27,114 bases of DNA from Oscillospiraceae bacterium (GTDB lineage: Bacteria > Bacillota > Clostridia > Oscillospirales > Ruminococcaceae), in the NCBI GenBank assembly GCA_045545795.1, contig JAZQBN010000050.1, positions 1 to 27,114 on the forward strand, in the 5' to 3' direction. Both the position numbers and the translations under genes were made by a program. The notes beneath the pieces are model-generated. The model had not been told where the DNA came from. It did no database searches and saw only the letters and a list, made by a program, of their open reading frames with translations. This document shows positions 1 to 16,867 of the stretch, in pieces (within the stretch, counting starts at the first letter, position 1; each line of letters begins with the position of its first letter).

Positions 1-132
1 GTTGACACTTTCTAACACGAACGCTTGGTTCTAAGCGAGGTTCGTCAATCCATTACCTTCTTATTATATCAAAATAAGCATAGCCTGTCACCACTGTAGG
101 TCAGCAGTTTGGACTATGCTAATATTATACCA

Positions 133-200
133 AAGCGAGGTAGTTGAATATGACACAGTCTATGATTAAAAACACCAGAATAAATATAATTACCTCGGTG
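133..200 (+). repeat. Left copy of a ~67-bp imperfect direct repeat (RBS-like AAGCGrGGTA, ATGACACArTC, ATGATTAAAA, AGAATAAATA, ATTACCTCGGTG)
   Basis: Aligns by eye at roughly 80% identity with 5615-5681. The two copies bracket the whole 8-gene operon. Confidence 0.7.
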
Positions 201-224
201 GGTTTGAAGCAGCTTTGCGTATAA
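150..224 (+). other. Mini-ORF A (24 codons, MTQSMIKNTRINIITSVGLKQLCV), possible leader peptide
   Basis: ATG lies about 7 nt after a GAGGT. The N-terminus is conserved with mini-ORF B at 5631-5696. A strong intrinsic terminator follows. Coding status is unproven. Confidence 0.25.
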
Positions 225-260
225 GTTTTTGCAGGGCATTGCTGTAATTTTGTATAACGT

Positions 261-299
261 AAGGATACCGAGCGTGGCTTGGTATCCTTTTTTATTTTT
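261..299 (+). terminator. Rho-independent terminator directly abutting the kptA RBS
   Basis: Stem AAGGATACCGAGC / GCTTGGTATCCTT (13 bp including one G-U), 3-nt loop, then TTTTTATTTTT. The GGAG of kptA starts 5 nt later. Confidence 0.8.
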
Positions 300-316
300 A
301 ACAGGAGTTGATACAG

Positions 317-856
317 ATGAAAGAAACAAGTATTTTTTTAAGCCTTATTTTAAGGCACAAGCCCTCTGCGGCTGGCATTACGCTTGACGGGCACGGCTGG
401 GCGAATGTTGATGAACTGATTGACGGTGTAAATGCAACAGGCAGATACACTCTGGATATGGCAAAGCTTGAAGAAATTGTCCGCACTGACAACAAACAGC
501 GTTACAGCTTCAACGAGGACAAGACGCTTATCCGTGCAAATCAGGGGCATTCCGTCCCTGTTGATGTTGAACTGAAAAAGTGCGAGCCGCCCGAGATTCT
601 TTATCACGGCACGGCGGATCGTTTTGTTGACTCGATTATGGCGGAGGGGCTGAAACCGAAAAGCCGTCTTTATGTGCATTTGTCGAAAGACCTTGAAACT
701 GCTGTGACCGTTGGCAAAAGACACGGCAAGCCTTTTGTGTTCAAGGTGAAGTCGGGTGAAATGCATCAGAACGGATTTGAATTTTTCCTATCGGAGAACG
801 GGGTATGGCTGACTAAGGCTGTACCTGCGAAATTTCTTGAAGTGCTTGATAATTGA
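317..856 (+). CDS. kptA: RNA 2'-phosphotransferase, Tpt1/KptA family
   Basis: Alignable by eye along its full length to E. coli KptA: FLSLILRHKP, GWANVDELI, KQRYSF, IRANQGHS, LYHGT, YVHLS, ENGVWLT. I chose the ATG at 317, 9 nt after GGAG, over the TTG at 308 in the ORF track. Confidence 0.93.
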   Translation: MKETSIFLSLILRHKPSAAGITLDGHGWANVDELIDGVNATGRYTLDMAKLEEIVRTDNKQRYSFNEDKTLIRANQGHSVPVDVELKKCEPPEILYHGTADRFVDSIMAEGLKPKSRLYVHLSKDLETAVTVGKRHGKPFVFKVKSGEMHQNGFEFFLSENGVWLTKAVPAKFLEVLDN

Positions 857-874
857 ATAAAAGCGGGGGTAATT

Positions 875-1921
875 ATGAATTACAGAAATGAAAAAATAAT
901 AAATGCGGTTATTGAAAAGGCAGAAAAAATATGCCCTGATTCTTTAGCACTTATAGGAATTTACGGTTCAGTTGCAACGGGTGATGATTATGAAAAATCA
1001 GACCTTGATTTGCTTATACTTATTCAGGATGATAACGGCTGGAAGCTGGGAACAGGCTTTATTCTGGATGACGTCGGGGTTGGTTATGATATCTACTGTA
1101 CGAACTGGGATGGGTTAAGATATGATTCAGCCTGTCATCACGCACACCTTTCAAAGCTGATGGACTCTGAAATTGTATACATTAAAAATCAGGAAGCCTA
1201 CGAAGATTTATGCCGATTAAGAGAGCAGACAAAAGCATTTTTATGTTCAGAGGAACGCTTCGACAGAGTAAATGAACTGATAGAAAAGGCAAAGGTGTCC
1301 TTTGCAAACGCTTGTCTGCACGAAAAAATCGGACAGGTACGAATGGACGTCTGCGAAACCTTGCTGTCACTTCTTGATGCAATAATGCTTTATTACGGGA
1401 CATATTTCAGGCGTGGCGTAAAACGTACTTTTGAAGAGCTTGCTCAATTTCCTCTTGACGGGAATTTCTCCGAAGACATAAGAAAAATATCGGAAAGCAA
1501 GGATGTTACAGAATTGCGTTCCCTTGCAAAATCGCTGATTCTGTATGCTGAAAATTACACATCAAAGGTAAAGGAAAAAGCGATTCCGACAAAGGAATCA
1601 CTTTCGGGAACATACGAAGAAATGTATTCAAACTGGCGAAACAAGGTAGAGGAAGCGGCGGTCAATAATGATACCTACTCATCATTTGTAAATATGTGCT
1701 GTCTGCAATATATGATTTCAGATGTTTCAGCGGATGTGAACATTGGAACTTATGATATTATGGAAGCTTATAACCCTGATTGTCCTGAAGACAATGTCAG
1801 GATTTATGATGAGTTTTTGGCAGACTACGAAAGATTATATAAGGAAGCAGGAATAGCTGTCAATCGCTTTTCTGATGTGGATAAATTTTATGGGGCTTAT
1901 GTCGGGGGAGATGATTTGTAA
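875..1921 (+). CDS. Pol-beta-fold nucleotidyltransferase with KNTase-like helical C-domain and an extra ~100-aa tail
   Basis: GIYGSVATGDDYEKSDLDLLILI matches the GS-x(n)-DxD minimal NTase signature. The following helical region resembles the C-domain of kanamycin nucleotidyltransferase. It sits 18 nt after the kptA stop. Confidence 0.8.
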   Translation: MNYRNEKIINAVIEKAEKICPDSLALIGIYGSVATGDDYEKSDLDLLILIQDDNGWKLGTGFILDDVGVGYDIYCTNWDGLRYDSACHHAHLSKLMDSEIVYIKNQEAYEDLCRLREQTKAFLCSEERFDRVNELIEKAKVSFANACLHEKIGQVRMDVCETLLSLLDAIMLYYGTYFRRGVKRTFEELAQFPLDGNFSEDIRKISESKDVTELRSLAKSLILYAENYTSKVKEKAIPTKESLSGTYEEMYSNWRNKVEEAAVNNDTYSSFVNMCCLQYMISDVSADVNIGTYDIMEAYNPDCPEDNVRIYDEFLADYERLYKEAGIAVNRFSDVDKFYGAYVGGDDL

Positions 1922-1968
1922 AAGTAAGCATTTCTGTTTTATGAAGTATAAATTGAGGTGAAGACAAA

Positions 1969-2820
1969 ATGATTGACATAATTTTATTCCCATCAAGCTA
2001 TTTTTCGGCAAAGCAGGTTGATGAAGCTTTGCAGTATGAATATGATGCGGCACTGGCAACAAGCTTGTTTGAGATTGCCCTGTTTGACTACGATAAATTT
2101 ATCAGCGAGGGTAAACTTATCCTCAACAAGATACCGTCAGAAAAATGCACTGCTGTTATGCGTGGCTGGATGATGAAGCCTGAACAGTACAAACTTTTTT
2201 ATGGGGAGTTGCTGAAAAACAATATTCAGCTTATCACATCTCCCGAAGAATATGAGCTTATGCATATTTTCCCTAACGTTTATGAGCGTTTTGGTACAGA
2301 CACGGCAAAAATGAAGCTGTATCAACTACACACGCAAATTGATGTTGAGGAAGTGAAGAAATCCTTTGACCGACTTATGATTAAGGATTTCGTCAAGTCG
2401 GTAAAGGGCACCGAATTTCCACGCTTTTTTGACTCTTCCGTTACACAGGAACAGTTTGACAAGTGGATGGATGTGTTCTACAAGTATCGTGGTGACCTGC
2501 TCACAGGCGGTATCTGCGTAAAGGAATTCCTTGATTTGAAATTTTACAACGGCAGACCTAACGAATACAGAGTATTTTATGCTAACAACAATATTCTTAC
2601 TGTCAACAGAAATTCAGGTCAGGGCAATTACACAAGTGAGCCGCCTATGGCATTGATTGAAAAATACAAGACCTTACCGAGCTGTTATTACACTGTTGAT
2701 TATGCGGAACTTTCCGACGGAACGTGGCGTGTAATTGAATCAGGCGACGGAAGTGTTTCGGGGTTGTCCGATAATCAGGACGCTGAACAGTATTTCAGGA
2801 GTTTGTATTACGCATTATAA
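1969..2820 (+). CDS. ATP-grasp domain protein (R2K-clade/DUF4343-like)
   Basis: Motifs typical of this ATP-grasp clade as I remember it: IKDFVKSVKG, EYRVFY, VIESGDGSVSGL. The family assignment is from memory, not a search. Confidence 0.6.
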   Translation: MIDIILFPSSYFSAKQVDEALQYEYDAALATSLFEIALFDYDKFISEGKLILNKIPSEKCTAVMRGWMMKPEQYKLFYGELLKNNIQLITSPEEYELMHIFPNVYERFGTDTAKMKLYQLHTQIDVEEVKKSFDRLMIKDFVKSVKGTEFPRFFDSSVTQEQFDKWMDVFYKYRGDLLTGGICVKEFLDLKFYNGRPNEYRVFYANNNILTVNRNSGQGNYTSEPPMALIEKYKTLPSCYYTVDYAELSDGTWRVIESGDGSVSGLSDNQDAEQYFRSLYYAL

Positions 2821-2843
2821 TCTAAAAATGAGGTGAAGACAGA

Positions 2844-3425
2844 ATGATTAAAAACAGAATGATTGAAACTGGAACAGTTGAAATCGGAACGATTTTTTAC
2901 ACCGCCGACCTTCATTTAGGTCACGAAAATGTTATAACCTACTCAAACCGTCCGTTCAGCAGTGCTGCTGAAATGCTGGAATGTATTATCCTTAACTGGA
3001 ATTCCGTTGTGTCGGCTTCTGATGATGTTTACATAATCGGTGATATGTTTTTCAAGATAAGCTCCAAAGAACAGCTTGAAATTCTCCGCCGTTTGAAAGG
3101 CAGAAAGCATCTTATTCTCGGAAATCACGACAAGGGTTTCAACAGCAATATCCGTGACGAATTTGTGGAAATAACCGATTATCTGAAGATTGATGACAAC
3201 GGCAGACGTGTTGTTCTGTCCCACTACCCCATACTTGAATGGGACGGCTATTTCAGGGGTGCATATCACGTTTATGGACACATTCACAACAATTTCGACA
3301 CCCCTGCATATCAGATTATAAAGAACAATCCTGAGCATTTCAGAAATGCTTTTAATGCAGGTGTTGATGTTACCGGGTACACTCCGCGAACACTGAATGA
3401 ACTTATAAGATTGAACAGTAATTAA
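2844..3425 (+). CDS. Metallophosphoesterase (calcineurin-like, short YfcE/AQ1575-type)
   Basis: Ordered metal-binding motifs: DLHLGH, GDMF, GNHD, H..P, GHIHN. GAGGTG RBS lies 8 nt upstream. Confidence 0.85.
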   Translation: MIKNRMIETGTVEIGTIFYTADLHLGHENVITYSNRPFSSAAEMLECIILNWNSVVSASDDVYIIGDMFFKISSKEQLEILRRLKGRKHLILGNHDKGFNSNIRDEFVEITDYLKIDDNGRRVVLSHYPILEWDGYFRGAYHVYGHIHNNFDTPAYQIIKNNPEHFRNAFNAGVDVTGYTPRTLNELIRLNSN

Positions 3426-3462
3426 AGTGTATCAATATGAACCACAAGGAGGTGAACACAGA

Positions 3463-4212
3463 ATGATTGAAAATAAAACGACTGAAACCGAAACAGTTGA
3501 AATCGGAACAGTTGAAATCGGAACAGTTTTTTACACAGGCGATACCCACGGAAAGATACTTAAAATCACAAATGCGATCCGCAATGGTATTCTTACAACG
3601 AATGACACGATAGTAATTCTCGGTGACGCAGGGTTTAATTATTATGGCAACGATCTTGGCGACAAGCGGACAAAGTACAAGCTGAACGAGGTCGGCATTA
3701 CTGTGTTCTGCATTCACGGCAACCACGAAATGCGTCCCGAAACGATACCGACCTACACCACTAAAGAGTGGCACGGCAGCACTGTTTATTACGAGGAAAA
3801 ATATCCGAATATTCTCTTTGCCAAGGACGGCGAGATTTACGACCTTGACGGGCACAAGTCCATTGTTATCGGCGGTGCGTACTCCGTTGACAAGTTTTAT
3901 CGTCTGCGGAACGGCTTTCACTGGTTTGAGGACGAACAGCCTTCGGCTGAAACCAAGGCACGGGTTGAAGCTGTACTTGATGGCTGTAACTGGGAGATTG
4001 ACCAGGTGCTTACTCACACCTGCCCGTATAAATACATTCCTACGGAGGCATTCCTGCCTAGCATTGACCAGAGCACAGTTGACAACAGCACGGAAAAATG
4101 GCTTGACACCATTGAGGACAGGCTGAACTACAAACGTTGGCTTTGCGGACACTGGCATATTGACAAGCATATTGACGATTTGCGGTTTGTTATGGAGGAT
4201 ATTATTGAGTAG
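3463..4212 (+). CDS. Metallophosphoesterase (lambda-PP/Ser-Thr-phosphatase-like subfamily)
   Basis: Motifs GDTHG, LGDAG, HGNHE, GGAYS, THT, GHWH. I chose the ATG at 3463 (GGAGGTG RBS) over 3427. It is divergent from the preceding phosphoesterase except for a shared N-terminal leader. Confidence 0.8.
   Translation: MIENKTTETETVEIGTVEIGTVFYTGDTHGKILKITNAIRNGILTTNDTIVILGDAGFNYYGNDLGDKRTKYKLNEVGITVFCIHGNHEMRPETIPTYTTKEWHGSTVYYEEKYPNILFAKDGEIYDLDGHKSIVIGGAYSVDKFYRLRNGFHWFEDEQPSAETKARVEAVLDGCNWEIDQVLTHTCPYKYIPTEAFLPSIDQSTVDNSTEKWLDTIEDRLNYKRWLCGHWHIDKHIDDLRFVMEDIIE
4186..4208 (+). repeat. 23-bp perfect direct repeat, copy 1 (3' end of the phosphoesterase CDS, encoding FVMEDII)
   Basis: TTTGTTATGGAGGATATTATTGA is identical to 4937-4959. 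Confidence 0.9.
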
Positions 4213-4240
4213 CTGTACTCACGTCTGAAAGGATCAGAAA

Positions 4241-4435
4241 ATGTCACTTAACAAAGCAATAGAACACGGCAAGGAGCACCGCAGACCCTATCGTGGAAGT
4301 AAGGCGGTTGACTACACATGCCGAAATCACGGCGGTTGTGATTGGTGCAGAAATAACCGTATGTACAACGAAAAACGTGAACTTGAGAAAATGAAGTGCA
4401 GGCTTGATGAAAGTGCTGAAATAAGTCAGGAGTAA
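4241..4435 (+). CDS. Small Cys-rich protein (64 aa), function unknown
   Basis: CRNHGGCDWC motif. Resembles small hypothetical proteins I have seen in Firmicutes phage and plasmid contexts. It ends 5 nt before the GNAT start. Confidence 0.6.
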   Translation: MSLNKAIEHGKEHRRPYRGSKAVDYTCRNHGGCDWCRNNRMYNEKRELEKMKCRLDESAEISQE

Positions 4436-4440
4436 CATAA

Positions 4441-4926
4441 ATGAAAAACATTAAAATTATTGCGGTAACTGAGAATGATGCAGAATTTCTGCAAAAGCTT
4501 ATGAATAATAAAGCTGTTATGGCTATTCTGAATGAAGTTCCGACAACTCTTTCTGTTTGGACTGATGCAATTAAAGAGTGGTTGCAGGATACTGACGAGA
4601 AAGATTATATTATCTTTGATGGCACTACACCTATAGGTTGGTTAGGTGTAAACGGACTATCATCAACTGATAAAAAGGCATATATAAAAATGATAGCACT
4701 GCTTCCTCAATATCAGAATTGCGGAATAGGCTCGTTTGTTATAAGGGAAACGATAGAAAGCCTTAAACTGCGTGGGTACAGTCCAATCGGACTTTACACA
4801 GACCAAAGCAACATTCAGGCACAGCAATGCTATTTAAAATGCGGTTTTGATGTCACAGCTGAAACTGAACAAAAAATGTCAAACGGTGTTGTTGTCAAGC
4901 GTTATGTAATGGAGTGTTCGCTTTGA
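4441..4926 (+). CDS. GNAT-family N-acetyltransferase
   Basis: Acetyl-CoA motif A region QYQNCGIGSFVI, C-terminal CYLKCGF, typical 161-aa size. Confidence 0.85.
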   Translation: MKNIKIIAVTENDAEFLQKLMNNKAVMAILNEVPTTLSVWTDAIKEWLQDTDEKDYIIFDGTTPIGWLGVNGLSSTDKKAYIKMIALLPQYQNCGIGSFVIRETIESLKLRGYSPIGLYTDQSNIQAQQCYLKCGFDVTAETEQKMSNGVVVKRYVMECSL

Positions 4927-4936
4927 TAATTTAAGA

Positions 4937-4959
4937 TTTGTTATGGAGGATATTATTGA
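4937..4959 (+). repeat. 23-bp perfect direct repeat, copy 2 (intergenic relic of a phosphoesterase 3' end, reads RFVMEDIID-stop)
   Basis: Identical to 4186-4208. It lies immediately upstream of the ligase-like gene RBS (GAAGGAG). Confidence 0.9.
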
Positions 4960-4977
4960 TTGAAGGAGTGATTATAT

Positions 4978-5553
4978 ATGAAGAAAATGCCTACTTTATT
5001 TGTAAGAGAATTTGAAGCCAATCATAAAATAATTATACACAACGAAGTTACTTCCGGTTGTGAATGGGTGCTTAACGGAGAAGGAATTGCAACCGAAAAA
5101 ATTGATGGTGCTTGCTGTGCTATTTTTGACGGTAGACACTGGCGAAGATATGATGCAAAAAGAGGTAAGCCAATTCCTGAAAATGCTGTTTTATGTCAGC
5201 CTGAAGCTGATGCTGTAACAGAACATCTGCCTTGCTGGGTTCCTGTTACAACAAATTCTGCTGACAAATGGTATCTTGAGGCTTTGCAAAACAGCAATAT
5301 TTCCTTGACGAATGACGGTACTTACGAGGCTGTCGGACCTCATTTCCAGAGCAATCCGTATAATCATGATAAAGATATAATTGTAAAACACGGTTCTATA
5401 ATTTTAGATTTGCCCGATAGGAGCTTTGAAGGTATAAGAGGATTTCTGAATACCCATTATATTGAAGGAATTGTATTCCATCGCGGCAATGGAGAAATGT
5501 GCAAAATAAAGCGAAGTGATTTCGGATTTCCTTGGATGAATTCAAAAAGATAA
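4978..5553 (+). CDS. Minimal covalent nucleotidyltransferase (ATP-dependent RNA/DNA ligase-like, adenylyltransferase domain only)
   Basis: Motif I KIDG with Lys41. Candidate motif IV is EGIVFH and candidate motif V is CKIKRSDF, near the C-terminus. At 191 aa there is no OB or other C-terminal domain. Confidence 0.65.
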   Translation: MKKMPTLFVREFEANHKIIIHNEVTSGCEWVLNGEGIATEKIDGACCAIFDGRHWRRYDAKRGKPIPENAVLCQPEADAVTEHLPCWVPVTTNSADKWYLEALQNSNISLTNDGTYEAVGPHFQSNPYNHDKDIIVKHGSIILDLPDRSFEGIRGFLNTHYIEGIVFHRGNGEMCKIKRSDFGFPWMNSKR

Positions 5554-5614
5554 TAGCAAAATTATGATTTAGTGATTTATAATTTACTAAATCATAATTT
5601 ACTAAAATATAAAT

Positions 5615-5681
5615 AAGCGGGGTAATTAAGATGACACAATCAATGATTAAAACTGAAAACAGAATAAATATTACCTCGGTG
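5615..5681 (+). repeat. Right copy of the ~67-bp imperfect direct repeat
   Basis: See 133-200. It is preceded by an AT-rich hairpin (5563-5596) and a 13-bp tandem ATAATTTACTAAA x2 (5579-5606). Confidence 0.7.
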
Positions 5682-5696
5682 TTATATTGCATTTAA
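5631..5696 (+). other. Mini-ORF B (21 codons, MTQSMIKTENRINITSVLYCI)
   Basis: Paralogous to mini-ORF A (MTQSMIK..RINI.TSV), with a GGGGT RBS-like element upstream. Coding status is unproven. Confidence 0.25.
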
Positions 5697-5706
5697 TATG
5701 CATACA

Positions 5707-5735
5707 TTGTACTTTCATATGAAATATGGTATAAT
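5707..5735 (+). promoter_or_regulatory. Sigma-A-type promoter (TTGTAC-N17-TATAAT with extended TG)
   Basis: TTGTAC at 5707-5712, 17-nt spacer ending in TGG, TATAAT at 5730-5735. It sits 64 nt upstream of the 5799 start. Confidence 0.55.
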
Positions 5736-5798
5736 TGCAGAAAATCTGAAAAGGGTACTGACATAAAATGATAAAATAACTGAACGGAAGGTGAAAGA

Positions 5799-6260
5799 AT
5801 GTTAACTTGTCCACAGCACGGCTGGTCAGAGTTCCGACTTGAAAATACATCAAGATACTCATTAAGCTATTTGGATGATATTGCATTTGAATGGCTTCAA
5901 CAAGCTATACACGGCTTGGAAAATTTATATCCTTTTTGCGTGAAGGGCAACCTTGAACCTGACAGGTTTTTATGTGTTGTCAGTCATTGGCATTGTCACA
6001 TAATTATAGAAAATGATGATAGGTGTCCTTTGGGCAAAGACGAAATTATCCACGAGTTTTCTGATACAAATATGCTTGATTTCTGCAGATATCTGTATGA
6101 GGATATAAGCAAAAATATAAATGAATGGGCTTCATTTGTTAGTTACAATAATGAAAATACAGAGGTAAAATTTCAGGAACTTACAAATCTGCTGGAGAAA
6201 TTACGTCTTCTGATTATCTCTAAAGAAGAATATTTTGGGAAGGATCGCGGATTTACTTAA
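5799..6260 (+). CDS. Hypothetical protein (153 aa), no recognisable domain
   Basis: Clean ORF with a GAAGGTGA RBS and a Cys/His/Trp-rich N-half (HWHCH). I recognise no family. Confidence 0.6.
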   Translation: MLTCPQHGWSEFRLENTSRYSLSYLDDIAFEWLQQAIHGLENLYPFCVKGNLEPDRFLCVVSHWHCHIIIENDDRCPLGKDEIIHEFSDTNMLDFCRYLYEDISKNINEWASFVSYNNENTEVKFQELTNLLEKLRLLIISKEEYFGKDRGFT

Positions 6261-6322
6261 GACTGATTTTAATACAACCACACTCCAATAGAAGCAATAA
6301 AATTATGTATGCTTAATTTCAA

Positions 6323-6351
6323 TTGCTAAAACCACTTCCCTATGCTATACT
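6323..6351 (+). promoter_or_regulatory. Sigma-A-type promoter (TTGCTA-N17-TATACT)
   Basis: Hexamers at 6323-6328 and 6346-6351 with exact 17-nt spacing, 33 nt upstream of the helicase ATG. Confidence 0.55.
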
Positions 6352-6383
6352 TATTACATACTACTGACAAGGGAGTGTTACAA

Positions 6384-8555
6384 ATGCAGGAATCAGACAC
6401 ATTGGCACGAGCAAAAGATTTGCTTAACAACCAATTCCACATAGATGGCGAACTGTTTGACTTTCAGGAACAGTGCATTAAAAGAATCATAGATGAAAAG
6501 AAAAATGTATTCTGTATCCGTGAAACAGGCTCGGGTAAGTCACTTTGCTATCAGATTCCTGCTCTTATGCTGGACAAAGACCATTGTACTGTTGTAATCT
6601 CGCCCCTTATTGCACTGATTGACGACCAGGTCAGGTCGCTCAGGGAAAACGGCATAGATGCTGAAGCGTTTCACTCACAAAGCCACAGCAAAGATGAGAG
6701 AAAACGCATTGAAGAAGAAATTCTGCGTGGCGATAGAAAACCCGGACTCATTTACACCACTCCCGAAACCTTGCGTGCAAAGGCGGATTCCTTTTTCAGC
6801 AAGCTTAAAATCTCCCTGCTTGTAATTGATGAGGCACACTGTGTTTCTGTATGGAGCAACGATTTCCGTCCGTCGTACAGGTGTATTCAGAATTTTATTG
6901 AAAAGAAGCTTCGCACCGCTACTCCTCCCATAATTGCGGCGTTTACTGCAACTGTTGATGAGAAAATTTTTAAAGATGTTGCAACTAAGCTTAATATGGG
7001 GATTGAAAAAAGCGACTGCATAGGACAGCGTCCCAAAAAGGAATTTAAAATTGACAACAAATCGGGAAAGTATAAAATATCTCTTTCTAACGGAAGTCTC
7101 CAAAGAAACAACAACGTATGCAAATTCATTATAAAACACAGGAATGAAAAGCTTCTTGTTTTCTTCAGCAGCAAAAAGTTGATGAATATAGTGAGCAAGA
7201 GACTGGAAAGTATGAGTAGTGGCCTTAAATTTGCAAAGTATTTCGGCGGCACCAACACCGACAAGGCTGCCAGGGCTAAAGAGAACGCTTTCAGGCTTTT
7301 TTCAGAGGGCGAGGTCAATATTCTGCTGGCAACCTCTGCTTTCGGAATGGGCGTTGACATTTGTGATATACGGCATATTATTCATGTCGGCTTTCCGCTT
7401 ACAATGCTTGATTATATTCAGCAATGCGGTCGGGGTGGGCGTGACGGAATGGGTTGTGAATACAAGCTGTACGCCTCACTCTCTGACATAAAGCGATGCG
7501 GCAGATTGATTTCCTCAAAGCAGCTTAAAATGTACCCCATGTCACGCTGTATAAAGATACAGCAAAAGGGTCGTGCAAAATTTGCAGAGGTAGTTGATTT
7601 CTGTCTTAATAATGCTTACGATGCAGACCATGAGCTTATTGAGCAGTTCCGTAATAAGCTTGAAATGTATATGAACAGTCCTGTTTTCGAGGAATATTGT
7701 CTCAACAAAAAGATTTATCAGCCGCTCATAAACACCTCTCCTGAGTTTGAGAAAGCAAGCTACTATGAAAATATCCTTGCAGACGGGATATACTCGCTGT
7801 GGTATAACGGTGCGAAAAGCTTTACTGCAAGAAAGCTGATTACCTGTGTTACAGGCAATGATAAAATCAGTCTGCACAATGAAAAGGCTGGCCATATAGA
7901 AGAGATTATAGACAAGTTGATCGTGAAGCATTACATTCCTGCAGAAAAACGACACACGGAAAACGGCAGGACAAAATATTGCTTTACTCCAAAGGCAAAT
8001 GAATGTATGCCTGACACATTTGCTTTACAGGAAACAGCCTTGCAGAATGGGCATATGTGTAACATTCCGAACGGCGTACTCAAAGCAATGAGTGATTTTT
8101 CCGACAATTCACGGCGTAAGAAAAGGCTTGACGAGGACGCTGATGTTACGGTTGTGAAATACTATCTGCTTAAAGAATTCAACAGGATTTTTGACTACTC
8201 GAAAAAGCACGGTGCTGAAATAACCGACCCTGATTATGAAAAGGAAAAGTATTTTTATTATTGTGAGCGTCCCGAATCGTCGAATAAGATATTGTACAAC
8301 CATTACGACATAAAGGCAGTTGGTGATAAATGCACGGGGATGTACAAGGCAACAGGCTTTTCTTTCAGCATCGGACAGATGCACAAAATCGTGTGTCTTA
8401 TACTGGATAATCTTATAAGGCACGATTATTTATGCGATTACAAGGTGCTGTATCACAGCGAAAAGGAAGTCAGACAATTACAGAAAAGAGGCTGTGATCT
8501 GGGTGCTGAAACTCCGAATGGTTACATAAGGGGTATTGAGCTTATGTGGAGATGA
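6384..8555 (+). CDS. RecQ-family SF2 DNA helicase core fused to an uncharacterised ~290-aa C-terminal region
   Basis: RecQ motifs in order: ETGSGKSLCYQIPAL, VISPLIALIDDQ, DEAHCVSVWSNDFRPSY, FTATVD, ATSAFGMGVDICDIRHIIH, QQCGRGGRDG. I chose the ATG at 6384 (GGGAG RBS). I see no RecQ zinc-finger, RQC or HRDC signature downstream. Confidence 0.88.
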   Translation: MQESDTLARAKDLLNNQFHIDGELFDFQEQCIKRIIDEKKNVFCIRETGSGKSLCYQIPALMLDKDHCTVVISPLIALIDDQVRSLRENGIDAEAFHSQSHSKDERKRIEEEILRGDRKPGLIYTTPETLRAKADSFFSKLKISLLVIDEAHCVSVWSNDFRPSYRCIQNFIEKKLRTATPPIIAAFTATVDEKIFKDVATKLNMGIEKSDCIGQRPKKEFKIDNKSGKYKISLSNGSLQRNNNVCKFIIKHRNEKLLVFFSSKKLMNIVSKRLESMSSGLKFAKYFGGTNTDKAARAKENAFRLFSEGEVNILLATSAFGMGVDICDIRHIIHVGFPLTMLDYIQQCGRGGRDGMGCEYKLYASLSDIKRCGRLISSKQLKMYPMSRCIKIQQKGRAKFAEVVDFCLNNAYDADHELIEQFRNKLEMYMNSPVFEEYCLNKKIYQPLINTSPEFEKASYYENILADGIYSLWYNGAKSFTARKLITCVTGNDKISLHNEKAGHIEEIIDKLIVKHYIPAEKRHTENGRTKYCFTPKANECMPDTFALQETALQNGHMCNIPNGVLKAMSDFSDNSRRKKRLDEDADVTVVKYYLLKEFNRIFDYSKKHGAEITDPDYEKEKYFYYCERPESSNKILYNHYDIKAVGDKCTGMYKATGFSFSIGQMHKIVCLILDNLIRHDYLCDYKVLYHSEKEVRQLQKRGCDLGAETPNGYIRGIELMWR

Positions 8556-8608
8556 AATTGAATATTGTATTTTTACACTTGAAAAAGTTAATCAGCAGTT
8601 ATGAATAA

Positions 8609-8658
8609 AGCCGCCTGAGCTGTCGTGATAATTCACGGCAATTCGGGCGGCTGTTTTT
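8609..8658. terminator. Compound GC-rich hairpin between convergent genes (bidirectional terminator)
   Basis: AGCCGCCTG...CGGGCGGCT with an inner CGTGA/TCACG stem. A GTTTTT run follows on the + strand. It sits immediately after the ATPase stop on the - strand. Confidence 0.7.
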
Positions 8659-10003
8659 ATATATTTTTATTACGTTCCCTTAAAAAACGTTTGAGCATAA
8701 ATGTAAGAAAATATGGGAATGTGTAAAATTTGCCATTGAAGCCGATATTTTTATTGCCAAGCTTTATTCCGTATTTTATATCAGAATATTTTTCGCTGTC
8801 AATAAGCTTGTTCAATGATATGGTTGCACCATCATTTGCTTTAACTTCAACGGGAACAAGAGAATCTGAATCACGCATAAAAAAGTCCATTTCAAGTGTA
8901 CCGCGTTCGTTTTTGTAGAAATACAGCTGACAGCCTTGCTTTACGAGCATATCACCGACAATATTTTCATATATTGCACCCTTGTAGGTGTTGAAGTTTT
9001 TGTTGAAACGCAGATCTTCCTGTGCTTCGTCATCAAGAGAGCCTATCAGCAAGCCGCTGTCACGAAAGTATACTTTGAAATCCGCAGGGTTATAATTCCC
9101 CTTCAATGGAAGTTCAGGCTGTTCCATACAATAACATACGTTAATTATGCCTGCACTGTCAAGCCAATCAAGTGTACCTGCATATTCACGGCTTCGTGCA
9201 CCCTTTTCAACCTTGGAAATCTGAAATTTCTTGTTTTCCTTTCCAAGAAAAGCAGGAATCTTTCTGTAAACATTAAGAACCTTTCCTTTATCAAGCCCTT
9301 CAGCATACTTGGTTATATCTTCCTCATAATCAAGGAGTATCTGACGCTGCATTTTGAGTATCCCGCTGAAATTCTTGTTTTCAATAAATGTTCTGACAAT
9401 TGCAGGCATTCCGCCCAACACCAGATACTCACGGAAATTATCAAACATAACATCAAGCAGTACGTTTGAAAGCGGAGCAGCTGAAAGCATGCTCTGATAC
9501 ATCTCTTCAATCTGTTCGGGTTTGTAGCCTTTGGCCCAGAGAAATTCCTCAAAATCCATTGAGTGCATTTCATAATCTTCCTTAAAGCCCACACTGTTTG
9601 ATTCAATTTCATGATAATTTATACCCATAAGCGAGCCTGAACATATTACATCATATCTTCCATCAAGCTTAAAAGCTTTCAGGCTTGTGGCACAGTTTGC
9701 ACACGCTTGAAGCTCATCAAAGAAAATCAATGTATCGTTTGGAATAAACTCAAGGTCAGGGTTGATCAACGAAATATTCCTGATGATTTTGTCAACGTCA
9801 AAACCATCATCAAAGATACTTCTGAATTGTTTTTGCAAAGCAAAATTTATGGGTACAACACTTTTATAATGACTTTTTGCAAAATTTTCAATGGAAACGG
9901 TTTTACCAATTTGTCTTGCACCCTTAACAATAAGCGGCAGACGTTCAGGATTGCTTTTCCACTCAGACAGATAAGCATCGATTTTACGTTTCAACAATGC
10001 CAT
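8657..10003 (-). CDS. AAA+ ATPase of the AAA_14/DUF4143 (COG1373-like) type
   Basis: Walker A-like GARQIGKT and Walker B-like LIFFDELQ, ~450 aa, C-terminal region of the DUF4143 kind. I chose the ATG at 10003, 7 nt after GGAGGG. Confidence 0.85.
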   Translation of the reverse strand: MALLKRKIDAYLSEWKSNPERLPLIVKGARQIGKTVSIENFAKSHYKSVVPINFALQKQFRSIFDDGFDVDKIIRNISLINPDLEFIPNDTLIFFDELQACANCATSLKAFKLDGRYDVICSGSLMGINYHEIESNSVGFKEDYEMHSMDFEEFLWAKGYKPEQIEEMYQSMLSAAPLSNVLLDVMFDNFREYLVLGGMPAIVRTFIENKNFSGILKMQRQILLDYEEDITKYAEGLDKGKVLNVYRKIPAFLGKENKKFQISKVEKGARSREYAGTLDWLDSAGIINVCYCMEQPELPLKGNYNPADFKVYFRDSGLLIGSLDDEAQEDLRFNKNFNTYKGAIYENIVGDMLVKQGCQLYFYKNERGTLEMDFFMRDSDSLVPVEVKANDGATISLNKLIDSEKYSDIKYGIKLGNKNIGFNGKFYTFPYFLTFMLKRFLRERNKNI

Positions 10004-10022
10004 ATTATCACCCTCCAATCAT

Positions 10023-11125: not shown

Positions 11126-11143
11126 ATGAGAAAGGAGTTTTTC

Positions 11144-12280
11144 ATGGCACAGAAATTGCCTGAAATCAAAAAAAGAAAAGACGGCTATTATGAGATGAAA
11201 GTAACCGTCGCACCTTATGTCAGAAAATCAATATATGGTGATACGCCTGCCGAAGTACGTCGTAAGGCGAAAGAACTTCTCATAGAGGCTACCCGATTTG
11301 ACATTTCGAATGTTAAGAAAATGACTGTTGCCACCTACATGACTTACTGGCTTATGGAAGTCAAAAAGCCTGAGGTCAAGCCTGGGTCATTTGACCGGAT
11401 TGAACAGTCGCTCAACTATCAGATTTTCCCTGCAATCGGACATATACAGATTAACTCACTTACTGCGGGTGATGTACAGCATATGATCAACTCGATTGCT
11501 GCCGAAAAATCCTACTCCACAGCAAAGAAAGCGTATGATAATCTTAATGCTTGTATGAAGCTGGGTGTTCAGCGTGGTGAAATACTTAAAAATCCTGTCG
11601 AAGGTGTAAGGCTGCCGTCCTCGAAGAAAAAGGCAAAGAAAGATATTGCCGCCTACACACCTGAAGAGGTTGCGGCGATCGTTGAAGAAGCTAAACGTAC
11701 ATACAGCAACGGCACTCCCGTGTACAGATACGGTTACCTTATAATTCTTATCCTTAATACAGGGATGAGAGAGGGCGAGCCGCTTTATCTCAAATGGAAG
11801 GACGTAGACTTTGAAAAACGGCGTATTTATGTTTGCGGTGATGTGGCTGAGGTTAAAAATCGTGAGCCTAATGCTAAAAGCAAGTACATCTGCATTGAGC
11901 AGGACACGCCGAAAACCAACAGGTCTGTACGGTACATTCCGCTGAACAACAATGCTATTGACGCACTTGAACAGCTTCGTAAAATTATCAAGGATGATAA
12001 AAGAGTGATTGCGTCGAAAAATCACACAATTCCTTCCCCACGCAAGATTTACAGGACAATGGAAAGTATTCTCAGGAACTGCGGCATAACAGGCAAGACA
12101 AATCTCGTTCACGCACTTCGTCATACATTCGCTACAACGCTCATTCACAGCGGCGTTGACATCAAGGCTGTTTCGGAAATTCTTGGTCACGAAGATGTTT
12201 CGACGACTTTGAAAATTTATCATCACGTTATCGAGGAACATAAGCATTCCGCTGTTATGAAGCTTGATAATTTGTATTGA
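11144..12280 (+). CDS. Tyrosine site-specific recombinase/integrase (module 1)
   Basis: C-terminal catalytic region HALRHTFATTLIHSGVDIKAVSEILGHEDVSTTLKIYHH. N-terminal SAM-like core-binding region. I chose the ATG at 11144, 6 nt after GGAG. Confidence 0.92.
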   Translation: MAQKLPEIKKRKDGYYEMKVTVAPYVRKSIYGDTPAEVRRKAKELLIEATRFDISNVKKMTVATYMTYWLMEVKKPEVKPGSFDRIEQSLNYQIFPAIGHIQINSLTAGDVQHMINSIAAEKSYSTAKKAYDNLNACMKLGVQRGEILKNPVEGVRLPSSKKKAKKDIAAYTPEEVAAIVEEAKRTYSNGTPVYRYGYLIILILNTGMREGEPLYLKWKDVDFEKRRIYVCGDVAEVKNREPNAKSKYICIEQDTPKTNRSVRYIPLNNNAIDALEQLRKIIKDDKRVIASKNHTIPSPRKIYRTMESILRNCGITGKTNLVHALRHTFATTLIHSGVDIKAVSEILGHEDVSTTLKIYHHVIEEHKHSAVMKLDNLY

Positions 12281-15493: not shown

Positions 15494-16867
15494 CTATTGC
15501 AGTGCGTTTTTTCTTTTTATCGGAAGAACCGATTGTATCATCTGAGCCGTTGCTGCATCCGCAGATGCTATTGCATGAGCATATATCCTGCTCGTTGTTG
15601 CTGACGTACTATGCCCTAATCTCTTTGCCGTAGTAGTAATCGGTACACCGTTAGAAATCATAATTGATGCACAAGTATGACGCAGTGAATGTACAGAAAC
15701 TTCAGGCAGATTATTTTCTCTTACAAATTGATAAAACCAAGCTGACACCGTACCCGGATTGATTGGTTTCCCATTATTTGCAGTAAATACCTTGCCGCTT
15801 TCAATCCAACTGCCCTCCATCTTCGCCGCTTCACTTTCCTGCCACAGCTTGAAATCTTTAAGCATATCAATAACATCTTGTCCAACCTTAATTATCCTTC
15901 TTGAAGAATAAGTTTTTGTATCATTTTCAAATATGCCTTTTTCCGGGAGATAAAGCAGGGTACGGCAGATATTGATAGTACAGTTGTTAAAATCAATATC
16001 CTCCCAATTCAAGCCGCAAGCTTCTCCCCTTCTCATTCCTGTTAAAAGTATAAGCGGGATTATAACATCGAATGGGTGTGGAGCTTTTTCAAGTACAACA
16101 TTCATAAGTTCTTCAGCTTGGTCATCTTCAAGATACTTTGCTTCTTTACGCTCTACTCTTGGTGCTTTAGTACGCTTACAAGGATTATCGTGTATAATTT
16201 CGTCATATACAGCAGACTGCATTATAGTTGATATAAGTCTATGATGATGAAGGATTGTACGGTCTGAAAGCATCACCTCTGTTGTATCAAAAAGTTTGCC
16301 TACCTCAGCATTAAAATATTCAGCAAATTTGCTCGCAGTTTCAATGCTTATACTCTTTCCTGCTCTTATGCAATCTATCGTGGTGGTTGATACACCCGTT
16401 TTTTCTGCAAGTTCAGGACGGGTTTCTTCCTTGCTCAACCTTATCGCTTCATTATTTGGTGTGCATTTTACATCTTCCCTTTTGGTTTCACGAAGGTTAT
16501 CATAAAACGAATACAAATGAAAAGGTTGAATCTGTGCCATTTTCAAGTGTCCTAAAGCAGGAAGAATGCGTTTGAGCATCCCTTTATACCTTGTAAATGT
16601 AGTTGGCTTTATCTCGTTCTCAACTCTTGGCAACCATATGTTATTAACGTATTTTGCCATAATCATATTGTTATCGAGAACTAAACCTTTTAAACAAAGT
16701 TCTTCAAACTGCAAAGCTACCTTTTCCAGCTCTTTTTCAATCTGTTTCTCTGTCATTTTGCTATTGGGCTTCCAAGTCATATTTTTTATTACCCTTTTGC
16801 CTTGAATCGTTTCGCCGCAATAACAACGAATTGTGTAACTATCACCACGCTTTGATATTTGTGCCAT
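15494..16867 (-). CDS. Tyrosine integrase (module 2), 457 aa, with an XRE-type HTH inserted in the N-terminal core-binding region
   Basis: Catalytic region HSLRHTCASIMISNGVPITTTAKRLGHSTSATTSRIYAH and RRGEACGLNWEDID. Inserted segment LAEKTGVSTTTIDCIRAGKSISIETASKFAEYFNAEVGKLF. Confidence 0.92.
   Translation of the reverse strand: MAQISKRGDSYTIRCYCGETIQGKRVIKNMTWKPNSKMTEKQIEKELEKVALQFEELCLKGLVLDNNMIMAKYVNNIWLPRVENEIKPTTFTRYKGMLKRILPALGHLKMAQIQPFHLYSFYDNLRETKREDVKCTPNNEAIRLSKEETRPELAEKTGVSTTTIDCIRAGKSISIETASKFAEYFNAEVGKLFDTTEVMLSDRTILHHHRLISTIMQSAVYDEIIHDNPCKRTKAPRVERKEAKYLEDDQAEELMNVVLEKAPHPFDVIIPLILLTGMRRGEACGLNWEDIDFNNCTINICRTLLYLPEKGIFENDTKTYSSRRIIKVGQDVIDMLKDFKLWQESEAAKMEGSWIESGKVFTANNGKPINPGTVSAWFYQFVRENNLPEVSVHSLRHTCASIMISNGVPITTTAKRLGHSTSATTSRIYAHAIASADAATAQMIQSVLPIKRKNALQ

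Follow-up and report, generated by a model that had tools for sequence, protein, structure and literature searches.

Does a run of eight co-directional genes on a gut Oscillospiraceae contig encode a single RNA-repair pathway, or a set of separable accessory enzymes? The question is raised by positions 317-5553 of contig JAZQBN010000050.1, the whole 27,114 nt of which were analyzed (hereafter the window). Eight open reading frames (ORFs), all on the + strand, encode in order the RNA 2'-phosphotransferase KptA, a nucleotidyltransferase (NTase), an R2K ATP-grasp protein, two calcineurin-type metallophosphoesterases (MPE1 and MPE2), a 64-aa Cys-rich protein (Cys64), a GNAT acetyltransferase and an RNA ligase. 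The initial annotation had read them as a system that heals and seals RNA ends with KptA built in, and had added the caveat that the set might be a grab-bag of independent cassettes. The caveat proved nearer the truth than the headline, as subsets of these genes vary among contigs that are 89-97% identical. We consider it moderately probable that the locus is an array of exchangeable accessory cassettes, in which a loose RNA-repair group is combined with unrelated passengers, and not a fixed repair system.

Array composition among relatives

At least six other contigs with 89-97% DNA identity to the window hold differing subsets of the array genes. The order is LRR / GNAT / KptA-NTase-MPE2-ligase-HipA-like-RecQ in L001, DUF6273 / MORN / leader / GNAT / KptA-NTase (frameshifted)-MPE1-orf123-MPE2-Cys64-GNAT-ligase in L003, KptA-NTase-R2K-MPE2 and onward in L202, MPE2-ligase in L002, and KptA-NTase-R2K-MPE1-MPE2-Cys64-GNAT-RlaP-RecQ in L327, L328 and L329. 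R2K is absent from L001 and L003 and MPE1 from L001 and L202, and the NTase of L003 is split by its frameshift. Cys64 and GNAT behave as one 751-bp cassette between 37-nt direct repeats; this cassette is missing from L001 and L002, in which MPE2 and the ligase are immediately adjacent. MPE2 itself is kept in every sister array extending to its position. In L327-L329, window segment 4954-6297 (the ligase, a second leader copy and a 153-aa ORF) is replaced by a genuine RlaP gene (PF10127, 1.9e-83), an enzyme that adds one or two nucleoside monophosphates to damaged RNA 3'-OH ends (PMC12776372).

The breakpoints of these variants coincide with three kinds of junction, namely a 25-nt box holding a ribosome-binding site (RBS) and start codon, the 37-nt direct repeat, and a leader-type start that is also used by RlaP. 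In the window, L001, L003 and L202, each R2K, MPE1 or MPE2 gene present starts with the box, and indels between sister contigs start and stop within it. It is essentially absent outside the window lineage (4 Mb of fetched loci), and its copies at 2825 and 3444 extend to ~75 nt. Copy 1 of the 37-nt repeat is the 3' end of MPE2 and copy 2 is a non-coding remnant after GNAT. The ligase/RlaP swap and the exchange of cassettes at RBS boxes appear to be new. This mosaicism is our more solid result: accessory enzymes are shuffled at shared translation-initiation boxes, which cautions against treating co-directional arrays of variable islands as integrated pathways. Like phage moron and integron-like arrays, the locus is made of co-directional, unrelated small genes that vary among near-identical relatives and recombine at short junctions. 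It differs from them in having no phage structural genes nearby and in junctions that are RBS/start-codon boxes and not known recombination sites. An integron cassette array was considered and rejected, the intergenic gaps of 5-51 nt being too short for attC.

Beyond close relatives, the array is not co-conserved. Our ligase-centered set drew 80 loci each from species-representative genomes and IMG/VR, and grouping these 160 at 80% ligase identity gave 61 lineages. KptA, NTase and GNAT occur with the ligase in one of the 61, the window's own, and in 0/60 others, while R2K lies near the ligase in 0/160 fetched loci. Among 36 KptA-centered phage contigs (57-71% identity) none has any of the other seven genes within 8 kb, and 80 NTase-centered metagenome loci likewise lack the other seven altogether and share no consistent neighbor. 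The expectation in the initial annotation that the eight genes would be conserved together therefore largely failed, and an integrated eight-gene system with KptA is not supported. Sister arrays that drop R2K, MPE1, Cys64 with GNAT, or the ligase, an NTase that is not RlaP and the lack of a kinase point the same way.

A phosphoesterase with the ligase is the only unit that recurs across lineages. The commonest ligase neighbors are a terminase-like protein and an SPP1-type portal, indicating that the ligase usually sits just ahead of a phage packaging module; next, by lineage, come MPE1-like genes (8), an AAA_14/DUF4143 ATPase (6) and RtcB (3). MPE1-like genes lie directly upstream of the ligase on the same strand in 8/61 lineages (from Tannerellaceae, Bacteroidaceae, Oscillospiraceae, Faecalimonas and other Clostridia), typically ending 17-38 nt from the ligase match, and the two ORFs often overlap. 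Calcineurin-type phosphoesterases of any kind accompany the ligase in ~9-10 of the 61 lineages, and four lineages have two calcineurin-signature genes near it. Counted with one representative per ligase lineage, calcineurin-signature ORFs number 0.040/kb within 3 kb of the ligase vs 0.0135/kb farther away (~3-fold enrichment, binomial p = 0.012). The recurrent pairing of a phosphoesterase with this ligase type appears to be new; it was not found in the study of RLIG1 homologs by Hu et al. (2024, PMC11494293), whose main text makes no mention of operons, gene neighbors or phosphoesterases.

MPE2 was tried as a specific ligase partner and rejected, its 39 co-occurrences falling in just three lineages and mostly in one phage lineage. 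Thirty-eight MPE2-centered phage loci contain an MPE1-like gene nearby in 12 cases and the ligase in none. As a separate observation, a metagenome-assembled genome of Faecalimonas sp. (L039, 7811-13098) carries RtcB, an MPE1-like gene, an RLIG1-type ligase, a second Metallophos gene, a Macro domain gene and a DarT-like ADP-ribosyltransferase, so that two RNA ligases of differing chemistry adjoin a DarTG-like pair.

Identities of the encoded proteins

ORF coordinates and a check of start sites agree with the initial annotation in giving eight same-strand genes, each with its own RBS: successive gaps are 18, 47, 23, 37, 28, 5 and 51 nt, and a GGAG/GAGG-type (Shine-Dalgarno-like) site precedes all eight starts (table 1). 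The eight genes are probably co-transcribed. Its domain calls were likewise upheld by Pfam, NCBIfam and PHROG profile searches, as was its remark that no polynucleotide kinase is visible, since the same scans of the array proteins and the two encoded downstream returned no P-loop kinase domain. No 2H domain was found in the array proteins (Pfam, NCBIfam). PADLOC identified none of the eight as a known defense system and gave only generic minimal-NTase matches for the N-terminus of the NTase, and megablast of positions 1-8600 against phage and plasmid collections gave no match.

Table 1. Features of the array, its repeats and its downstream flank (window coordinates unless a contig is named)
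Feature	Position	Strand	Basis or remark
Leader unit	117-299	+	possible extended -10, small ORF, two hairpins, terminator-like hairpin
KptA/Tpt1 RNA 2'-phosphotransferase	317-856 (alternative TTG start 308)	+	PF01885, NF002014, phrog_5470, PDB 7kw8
NTase, Pol-beta-fold with helical C-terminal domain, ANT/KNTase-like	875-1921	+	motifs, Polbeta/NTP_transf_2, AF2 fold
R2K.3 ATP-grasp protein, variable cassette	1969-2820	+	PF14243, ExGD motif
MPE1, small calcineurin-type metallophosphoesterase, variable cassette	2844-3425	+	phrog_547, PDB 1xm7, motifs
MPE2, second, different calcineurin-type metallophosphoesterase	3463-4212 (alternative GTG 3427)	+	PF00149, phrog_1649
Cys64, Cys-rich 64-aa protein	4241-4435	+	no family match
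GNAT acetyltransferase	4441-4926	+	PF00583
RLIG1/C12orf29-family minimal 5'-P/3'-OH RNA ligase, 191 aa	4978-5553	+	PF17720, phrog_14301, PDB 9c6l, AF2/Foldseek
Junction box AAAxTGAGGTGAAGACAxAATGATT, RBS and first two codons	1950-1974, 2825-2849, 3444-3468	+	repeat families D1, D2
37-nt direct repeat, 86% identical	4172-4208, 4923-4959		brackets Cys64 and GNAT insert
AT-rich palindrome, 21+21-nt arms, 90% complementary, no spacer, no T-run	5559-5600		directly after ligase stop; inverted repeat I2
Truncated second leader copy	~5614-5686	+	direct repeat D5, leader-copy alignment
Leader-unit copies	window ~5614-5686 (truncated), L003 3653-3818 and ~9149-9330, L001 ~8913-9070
orf153, then RecQ-like helicase	5799-8555		orf153 without family match; helicase 737 aa
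AAA_14/DUF4143 ATPase	8657-10018	-
Tyrosine recombinase	11126-12280	+
Tyrosine recombinase	15494-16867	-

By sequence and predicted structure, the 191-aa protein belongs to the RLIG1/C12orf29 family of ligases that join 5'-phosphate (5'-P) and 3'-OH RNA ends. It matches PF17720 RLIG1 (E 5.9e-11, 42.2 bits, cutoff 25), phrog_14301 "RNA ligase" over its full length (E 8.5e-62, positions 1-184 of 186) and the Yasminevirus C12orf29 ligase in PDB 9c6l (E 2.4e-16). Lys41 of its KIDG motif is aligned to the TAKTDG lysine of 9c6l, the residue changed to Met in the K73M entry 9c6m, and EGIVFH (motif IV) and CKIKR (motif V) line up with the matching strands. These alignments bear out the ligase motifs noted in the initial annotation, as does conservation among 31 homologs, in which K41, D43, G44, G164, K176 and K178 are invariant and E163 nearly so. 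A minimal, ATP-grasp-like RNA ligase fold is supported by an AlphaFold2 (AF2) model (pLDDT 92.6) whose only significant PDB matches in Foldseek are 12 chains of 9c6l/9c6m (query-normalized TM 0.75-0.80, E 2.7e-12). Compared with the viral (277 aa) and human proteins the window ligase is shorter, and its activity is a predicted one. We found 1367 homologs of ~190 aa from gut bacteria and phages, and an exact-protein look-up returned no record of the window sequence. RLIG1 homologs of bacteria and phages seal 5'-P/3'-OH tRNA halves (Hu et al. 2024, PMC11494293).

KptA is a genuine member of the Tpt1/KptA family on sequence criteria, in agreement with its original call. It matches PF01885 (E 1.2e-47), the NCBIfam equivalog NF002014 (251 bits, cutoff 239), phrog_5470 (E 8.7e-77) and PDB 7kw8 (E 4.6e-51), in which R16-H17, R65 and R120 are matched by identical residues. 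We take these residues to be the catalytic tetrad described in papers from the Shuman laboratory. The statement that no substrate-generating pathway is known for bacterial KptA is partly outdated, given that ArkI and KptA carry out reversible 2'-phosphorylation of tRNA U47 and that ArkI homologs occur in some bacteria (PMC9095486). Certain Tpt1 enzymes take off terminal 2'- or 3'-phosphates as well as junction 2'-phosphates (PMC6573784), and an RNA-repair role alongside ligases has been proposed for phage KptA (Iyer et al. 2022, PMC9503650). Tpt1/KptA enzymes are also described as ADP-ribosylating the 5' ends of nucleic acids (PMC12678800).

Two features of phage KptA loci are recorded here in their own right. 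Half of the 36 (18/36) carry a PemK/MazF-family toxin gene (PF02452, 1.5e-36) ~1.7 kb downstream on the same strand, with a helix-turn-helix (HTH) gene on the opposite strand between the two and a GmrSD_N-domain protein farther downstream; these loci (L164-L195, KptA at 8001-8540) probably represent one or few phage lineages. The 467-kb phage contig IMGVR_UViG_3300021431_002946 (L083, L177) encodes KptA and an RLIG1-type ligase ~43 kb apart.

Profile matches to the 348-aa NTase are confined to its N-terminus, where Polbeta scores below its cutoff (E 4e-5, 24.0 bits, cutoff 26.9) and NTP_transf_2 reaches it (E 3e-4, 21.5 bits, cutoff 21). The translation contains hG[GS] and DxD motifs. The best PDB folds for its AF2 model (pLDDT 80.7) are ANT(4')/KNTase, LinB, AadA and ANT(6), with matches to 1kny, 6un8, 4ebj, 3jyy and AadA at E 2.6e-4 to 1e-2, target-normalized TM 0.34-0.61 and 11-16% identity. 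These fold matches indicate an architecture shared with ANT/KNTase enzymes; the NCBIfam ANT(4')-I model gives 16 bits against a cutoff of 350, and membership of that family is tentative. By model comparison, the protein resembles antibiotic NTases far more than CCA-adding enzymes, and an RlaP or CCA-adding type of enzyme was ruled out by this comparison together with the absence of an RlaP profile match in Pfam. Its 1432 homologs form a stand-alone family of gut Clostridia, with no close relatives on viral contigs; single homologs lie beside serS or in an array with HAD, two Metallophos genes and AbiEii. That array (L200/L201, 1-7645) is co-directional and runs DUF6994, HAD_SAK_2, Metallophos, three genes of no family, Metallophos, NTase (66% identical), unknown and AbiEii, a second case of an NTase with two phosphoesterases, built from unrelated phosphoesterase sequences.

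The phosphoesterases differ in their matches. MPE1 falls below the Pfam cutoff and matches phrog_547 (E 9e-47) and PDB 1xm7 (E 1e-15), with the metal-binding motifs DLHLGH, GDMF, GNHD and GHIH, while MPE2 matches PF00149 Metallophos (E 4e-12, 47.4 bits, cutoff 21.5) and phrog_1649 (E 2.5e-24), with GDTHG, GDAG, GNHE and GHWH. For MPE2 the ATG start at 3463, which has a GGAGG site, is likely to be used in preference to GTG 3427.

R2K matches PF14243 (R2K_3; E 7e-20, 72.3 bits, cutoff 26.3), and its VIESGDG segment holds the ExGD motif that, in place of ExN, sets R2K.3 apart (PMC4431377). R2K.3 proteins, sometimes linked to GNAT, have been predicted to act as peptide or protein ligases during conflicts between phages and hosts, and GNAT proteins too are predicted modifiers of peptides or proteins (PMC4431377). 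No close R2K relatives were found on viral contigs. A relative of 92% protein identity stands in an unrelated LRR context (L325, 681-3528), where it overlaps the LRR gene by 4 nt and is followed by four tandem 135-aa paralogs and a VbhA-like gene; another, 72% identical, lies in L330 (see below). GNAT matches PF00583 (E 1.3e-14), with low-scoring RimI and Sat4 matches in NCBIfam, and Cys64 has no family match in Pfam, NCBIfam or PHROGs.

Proposed RNA repair and its alternatives

The cassettes of the array have been gained, lost and swapped by recombination at the shared junctions described above, namely the RBS/start box, the 37-nt repeat and the leader/RlaP-type start. Four to five of them, we propose, would constitute an RNA-repair group. 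KptA would remove RNA 2'-phosphates in an NAD+-dependent reaction, one or two of the phosphoesterases are candidate healers of 2',3'-cyclic-phosphate or 3'-phosphate ends, and the RLIG1-type ligase would seal 5'-P/3'-OH breaks, its place being taken in sister arrays by RlaP, which would add 1-2 nt to damaged 3'-OH ends. Most likely these members act singly or loosely together on tRNA or rRNA cut by ribotoxins or defense nucleases. With no 5' kinase, the ligase alone could repair 5'-P/3'-OH breaks only; such ends are the product of metal-dependent nucleases. The ANT-like NTase, R2K.3 and the Cys64 and GNAT pair would be independent passengers that modify small molecules or proteins.

If this is correct, the window is a natural construct that brings KptA together with two phosphoesterases and a 5'-P ligase and allows the role of a bacterial KptA to be tested in vitro, and the phosphoesterase and RLIG1-type ligase of gut bacteria and phages would form a compact two-gene RNA repair module. 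The component families are all known, and both the ligase plus end-modifier syntax and the proposed repair role of phage KptA are already published.

Several points weigh against this explanation. That a single unit should hold KptA, two phosphoesterases and either a ligase or RlaP exceeds random expectation, which would argue for a cooperation tighter than loose, and the retention of KptA-NTase and MPE2 in all sister arrays reaching those positions may reflect a lineage-specific functional core, although conservation inside one lineage says little either way. The phosphoesterases could act on substrates other than RNA. With a terminator right before KptA, the array could be transcribed only by read-through or from an unseen promoter. 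The loci compared came from pattern scans capped at 80 loci each, are redundant and are dominated by one phage lineage, and very divergent partners would escape tblastn at E <= 1e-3.

Of the alternatives, the one that survives best, while still unlikely in our estimation, is that the array is wholly miscellaneous, with unrelated phage-type morons and resistance- or detoxification-like enzymes accumulating at a recombination-prone site and the RNA-repair flavor a coincidence; the locus would then be ordinary. The turnover of cassettes at repeated junctions fits this explanation, as do the LRR, MORN, DUF6273, extra GNAT and HipA-like genes in adjoining slots of sister contigs, and the R2K homolog in the long L330 array of NUDIX, HAD, GNAT, beta-lactamase and kinase genes. 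The NTase fold is like that of aminoglycoside and lincosamide NTases, the GNAT has its low-scoring RimI and Sat4 matches, and a leader peptide with a terminator is an architecture typical of inducible resistance genes. Coincidence is harder to reconcile with phosphoesterase-ligase adjacency in diverse taxa and its local enrichment, with RtcB adjoining the ligase and RlaP taking its place, and with a slot system that holds three RNA-end enzymes (KptA, RLIG1 and RlaP), which is unlikely by chance.

Somewhat less plausible is the integrated heal-and-seal pathway of the initial annotation, in which the NTase and other products would modify RNA ends in defense or counter-defense against ribotoxins. 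The eight genes do form one apparent transcription unit with no terminator inside, and KptA, the ligase and the phosphoesterases are true family members. KptA-NTase-MPE2 and the ligase are kept in the window, L001 and L003, the substitution of RlaP for the ligase in L327-L329 keeps that slot within RNA repair, and healing of terminal 2'/3'-phosphates by some Tpt1 enzymes (PMC6573784) would suit such a role. Against this, co-conservation is confined to a single lineage of contigs 89-97% identical in DNA, within which R2K, MPE1 and the Cys64 and GNAT pair are dispensable, L327-L329 do without the ligase, and the NTase is frameshifted in L003. Moreover, the NTase fold is antibiotic-NTase-like and unlike RlaP or CCA-adding enzymes, and without a 5' kinase the 5'-OH ends left by metal-independent RNases are unsealable by a 5'-P ligase.

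Like T4 Pnkp with Rnl1 and bacterial Pnkp-Hen1, the array combines an ATP-dependent 5'-P RNA ligase with a phosphoesterase, presumably for reversal of ribotoxin damage, and the phosphatase of bacterial Pnkp is itself calcineurin-type. The array differs from them in having neither a polynucleotide 5' kinase nor a Hen1 methyltransferase, in its ligase family and in parts that are not co-conserved. The pattern of ligase, Pol-beta NTase and end-modifier resembles RtcB-RtcA(-RlaP) operons and RlaP-ligase neighborhoods as summarized in PMC12776372 (after Burroughs & Aravind 2016), and RlaP occupies the ligase slot of L327-L329. In contrast to those operons, however, the window NTase is not RlaP, RlaP replaces the ligase and does not join it, and the window has no RtcA, RtcB or RtcR.

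A split, kinase-less bacterial counterpart of the fungal and plant tRNA-ligase pathway is very unlikely. Here a phosphoesterase would open 2',3'-cyclic phosphate to 2'-phosphate, the RLIG1-type ligase would join 2'-phosphate/3'-OH to 5'-P ends and KptA would clear junction or terminal 2'-phosphate, the whole being induced through a leader-peptide attenuator that responds to ribosomes stalled as a result of tRNA damage. If true, this would be a natural substrate-generating pathway for bacterial KptA. As in Trl1-Tpt1 tRNA splicing and the phage KptA/2H model (PMC9503650), the window KptA stands in a unit with an RNA ligase and phosphoesterases that possibly yield 2'-phosphate. The window differs in having no 2H cyclic phosphodiesterase or kinase and a ligase not known to need 2'-phosphate, and KptA is linked to an RLIG1-type ligase in no other lineage examined.

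Counter-defense against nucleotide- or NAD+-based immunity, in which the phosphoesterases would cut cyclic (oligo)nucleotide signals, KptA would ADP-ribosylate nucleic-acid 5'-phosphates, R2K and GNAT would modify host proteins and the ligase would be the sole RNA-repair element, is the least probable explanation and highly improbable: it draws on strong PHROG matches and many phage-contig relatives of KptA, MPE1, MPE2 and the ligase, on the 12/38 phage loci that join MPE1-like and MPE2-like genes with no ligase, on the predicted protein-modifying role of R2K families in phage-host conflicts (PMC4431377) and on the Tpt1/KptA 5'-end chemistry (PMC12678800), but such substrates are conjectural, the NTase, R2K and RecQ-like helicase have no close viral-contig relative, and the 27-kb window is without phage structural genes.

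Leader unit and island context

The initial annotation had begun the gene array at 133, where no gene starts; the position marks the beginning of a ~170-nt leader unit. Its finding of no internal terminator holds for the gene array, in which none is convincing, but not for the full span it had given, since a 13-bp terminator-like hairpin at 261-289 precedes KptA, with a T-run after it that stops 17 nt short of the KptA ATG. Upstream lies a possible extended -10 (TGcTAATAT, 117-125), which was read by eye and not returned by the promoter scan, and a small ORF of 24 codons (150-224): MTQSMIKNTRINIITSVGLKQLCV. The leader folds at -45.2 kcal/mol (z = -2.47), and the terminator scan of positions 1-8700 gave 8 sites vs 6.5 +/- 2.5 in shuffles. 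No Rfam match was obtained for positions 1-8700 at E <= 1, which sets the leader apart from known riboswitches and RNA families.

The unit, consisting of an RBS, the small ORF (MTQSMIK..RINI(I)TSV..), hairpins and an intrinsic terminator, stands at the borders of transcription units, recurring ahead of KptA in L003 and after the ligase in both L001 and L003. Two in-frame 3-nt indels in the small ORF distinguish its copies, which also vary in both arms of the terminator stem, and over its first ~25 nt the unit is similar to the RlaP gene of L327 at the RBS and start. Inspection by eye suggested a candidate antiterminator pairing between CTCGGT (194-199) and its complement ACCGAG (267-272) in the 5' arm of the terminator. 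On these features the leader may be a leader-peptide attenuator.

The array belongs to the cargo of a variable chromosomal island that carries integrases, in a gut Oscillospiraceae bacterium. Downstream of it follow orf153, the RecQ-like helicase, the AAA_14/DUF4143 ATPase on the opposite strand, two tyrosine recombinases and an HTH gene. In PADLOC the helicase is strongly matched by DpdF and PsyrT, and its C-terminal half of ~300 aa is uncharacterized; the helicase is kept in L001 and L327, where orf153 is replaced, and could be a defense or toxin-antitoxin-like module or the replication helicase of the island. The ATPase is absent from the otherwise collinear L001, and its family occurs near the ligase in the six lineages noted above (e.g., L031, L053 and L055). 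The integrases of the island are phage-type tyrosine recombinases, which flank a 553-aa MutS domain V ATPase. A prophage label was rejected for the island on the grounds that the NTase, R2K and RecQ-like helicase have no relatives on viral contigs. Host teichoic-acid and polysaccharide genes begin at ~18860, and the public contigs closest to the window belong to metagenome-assembled genomes of Oscillospiraceae and Ruminococcus, obtained from the guts of ruminants and from other gut material.

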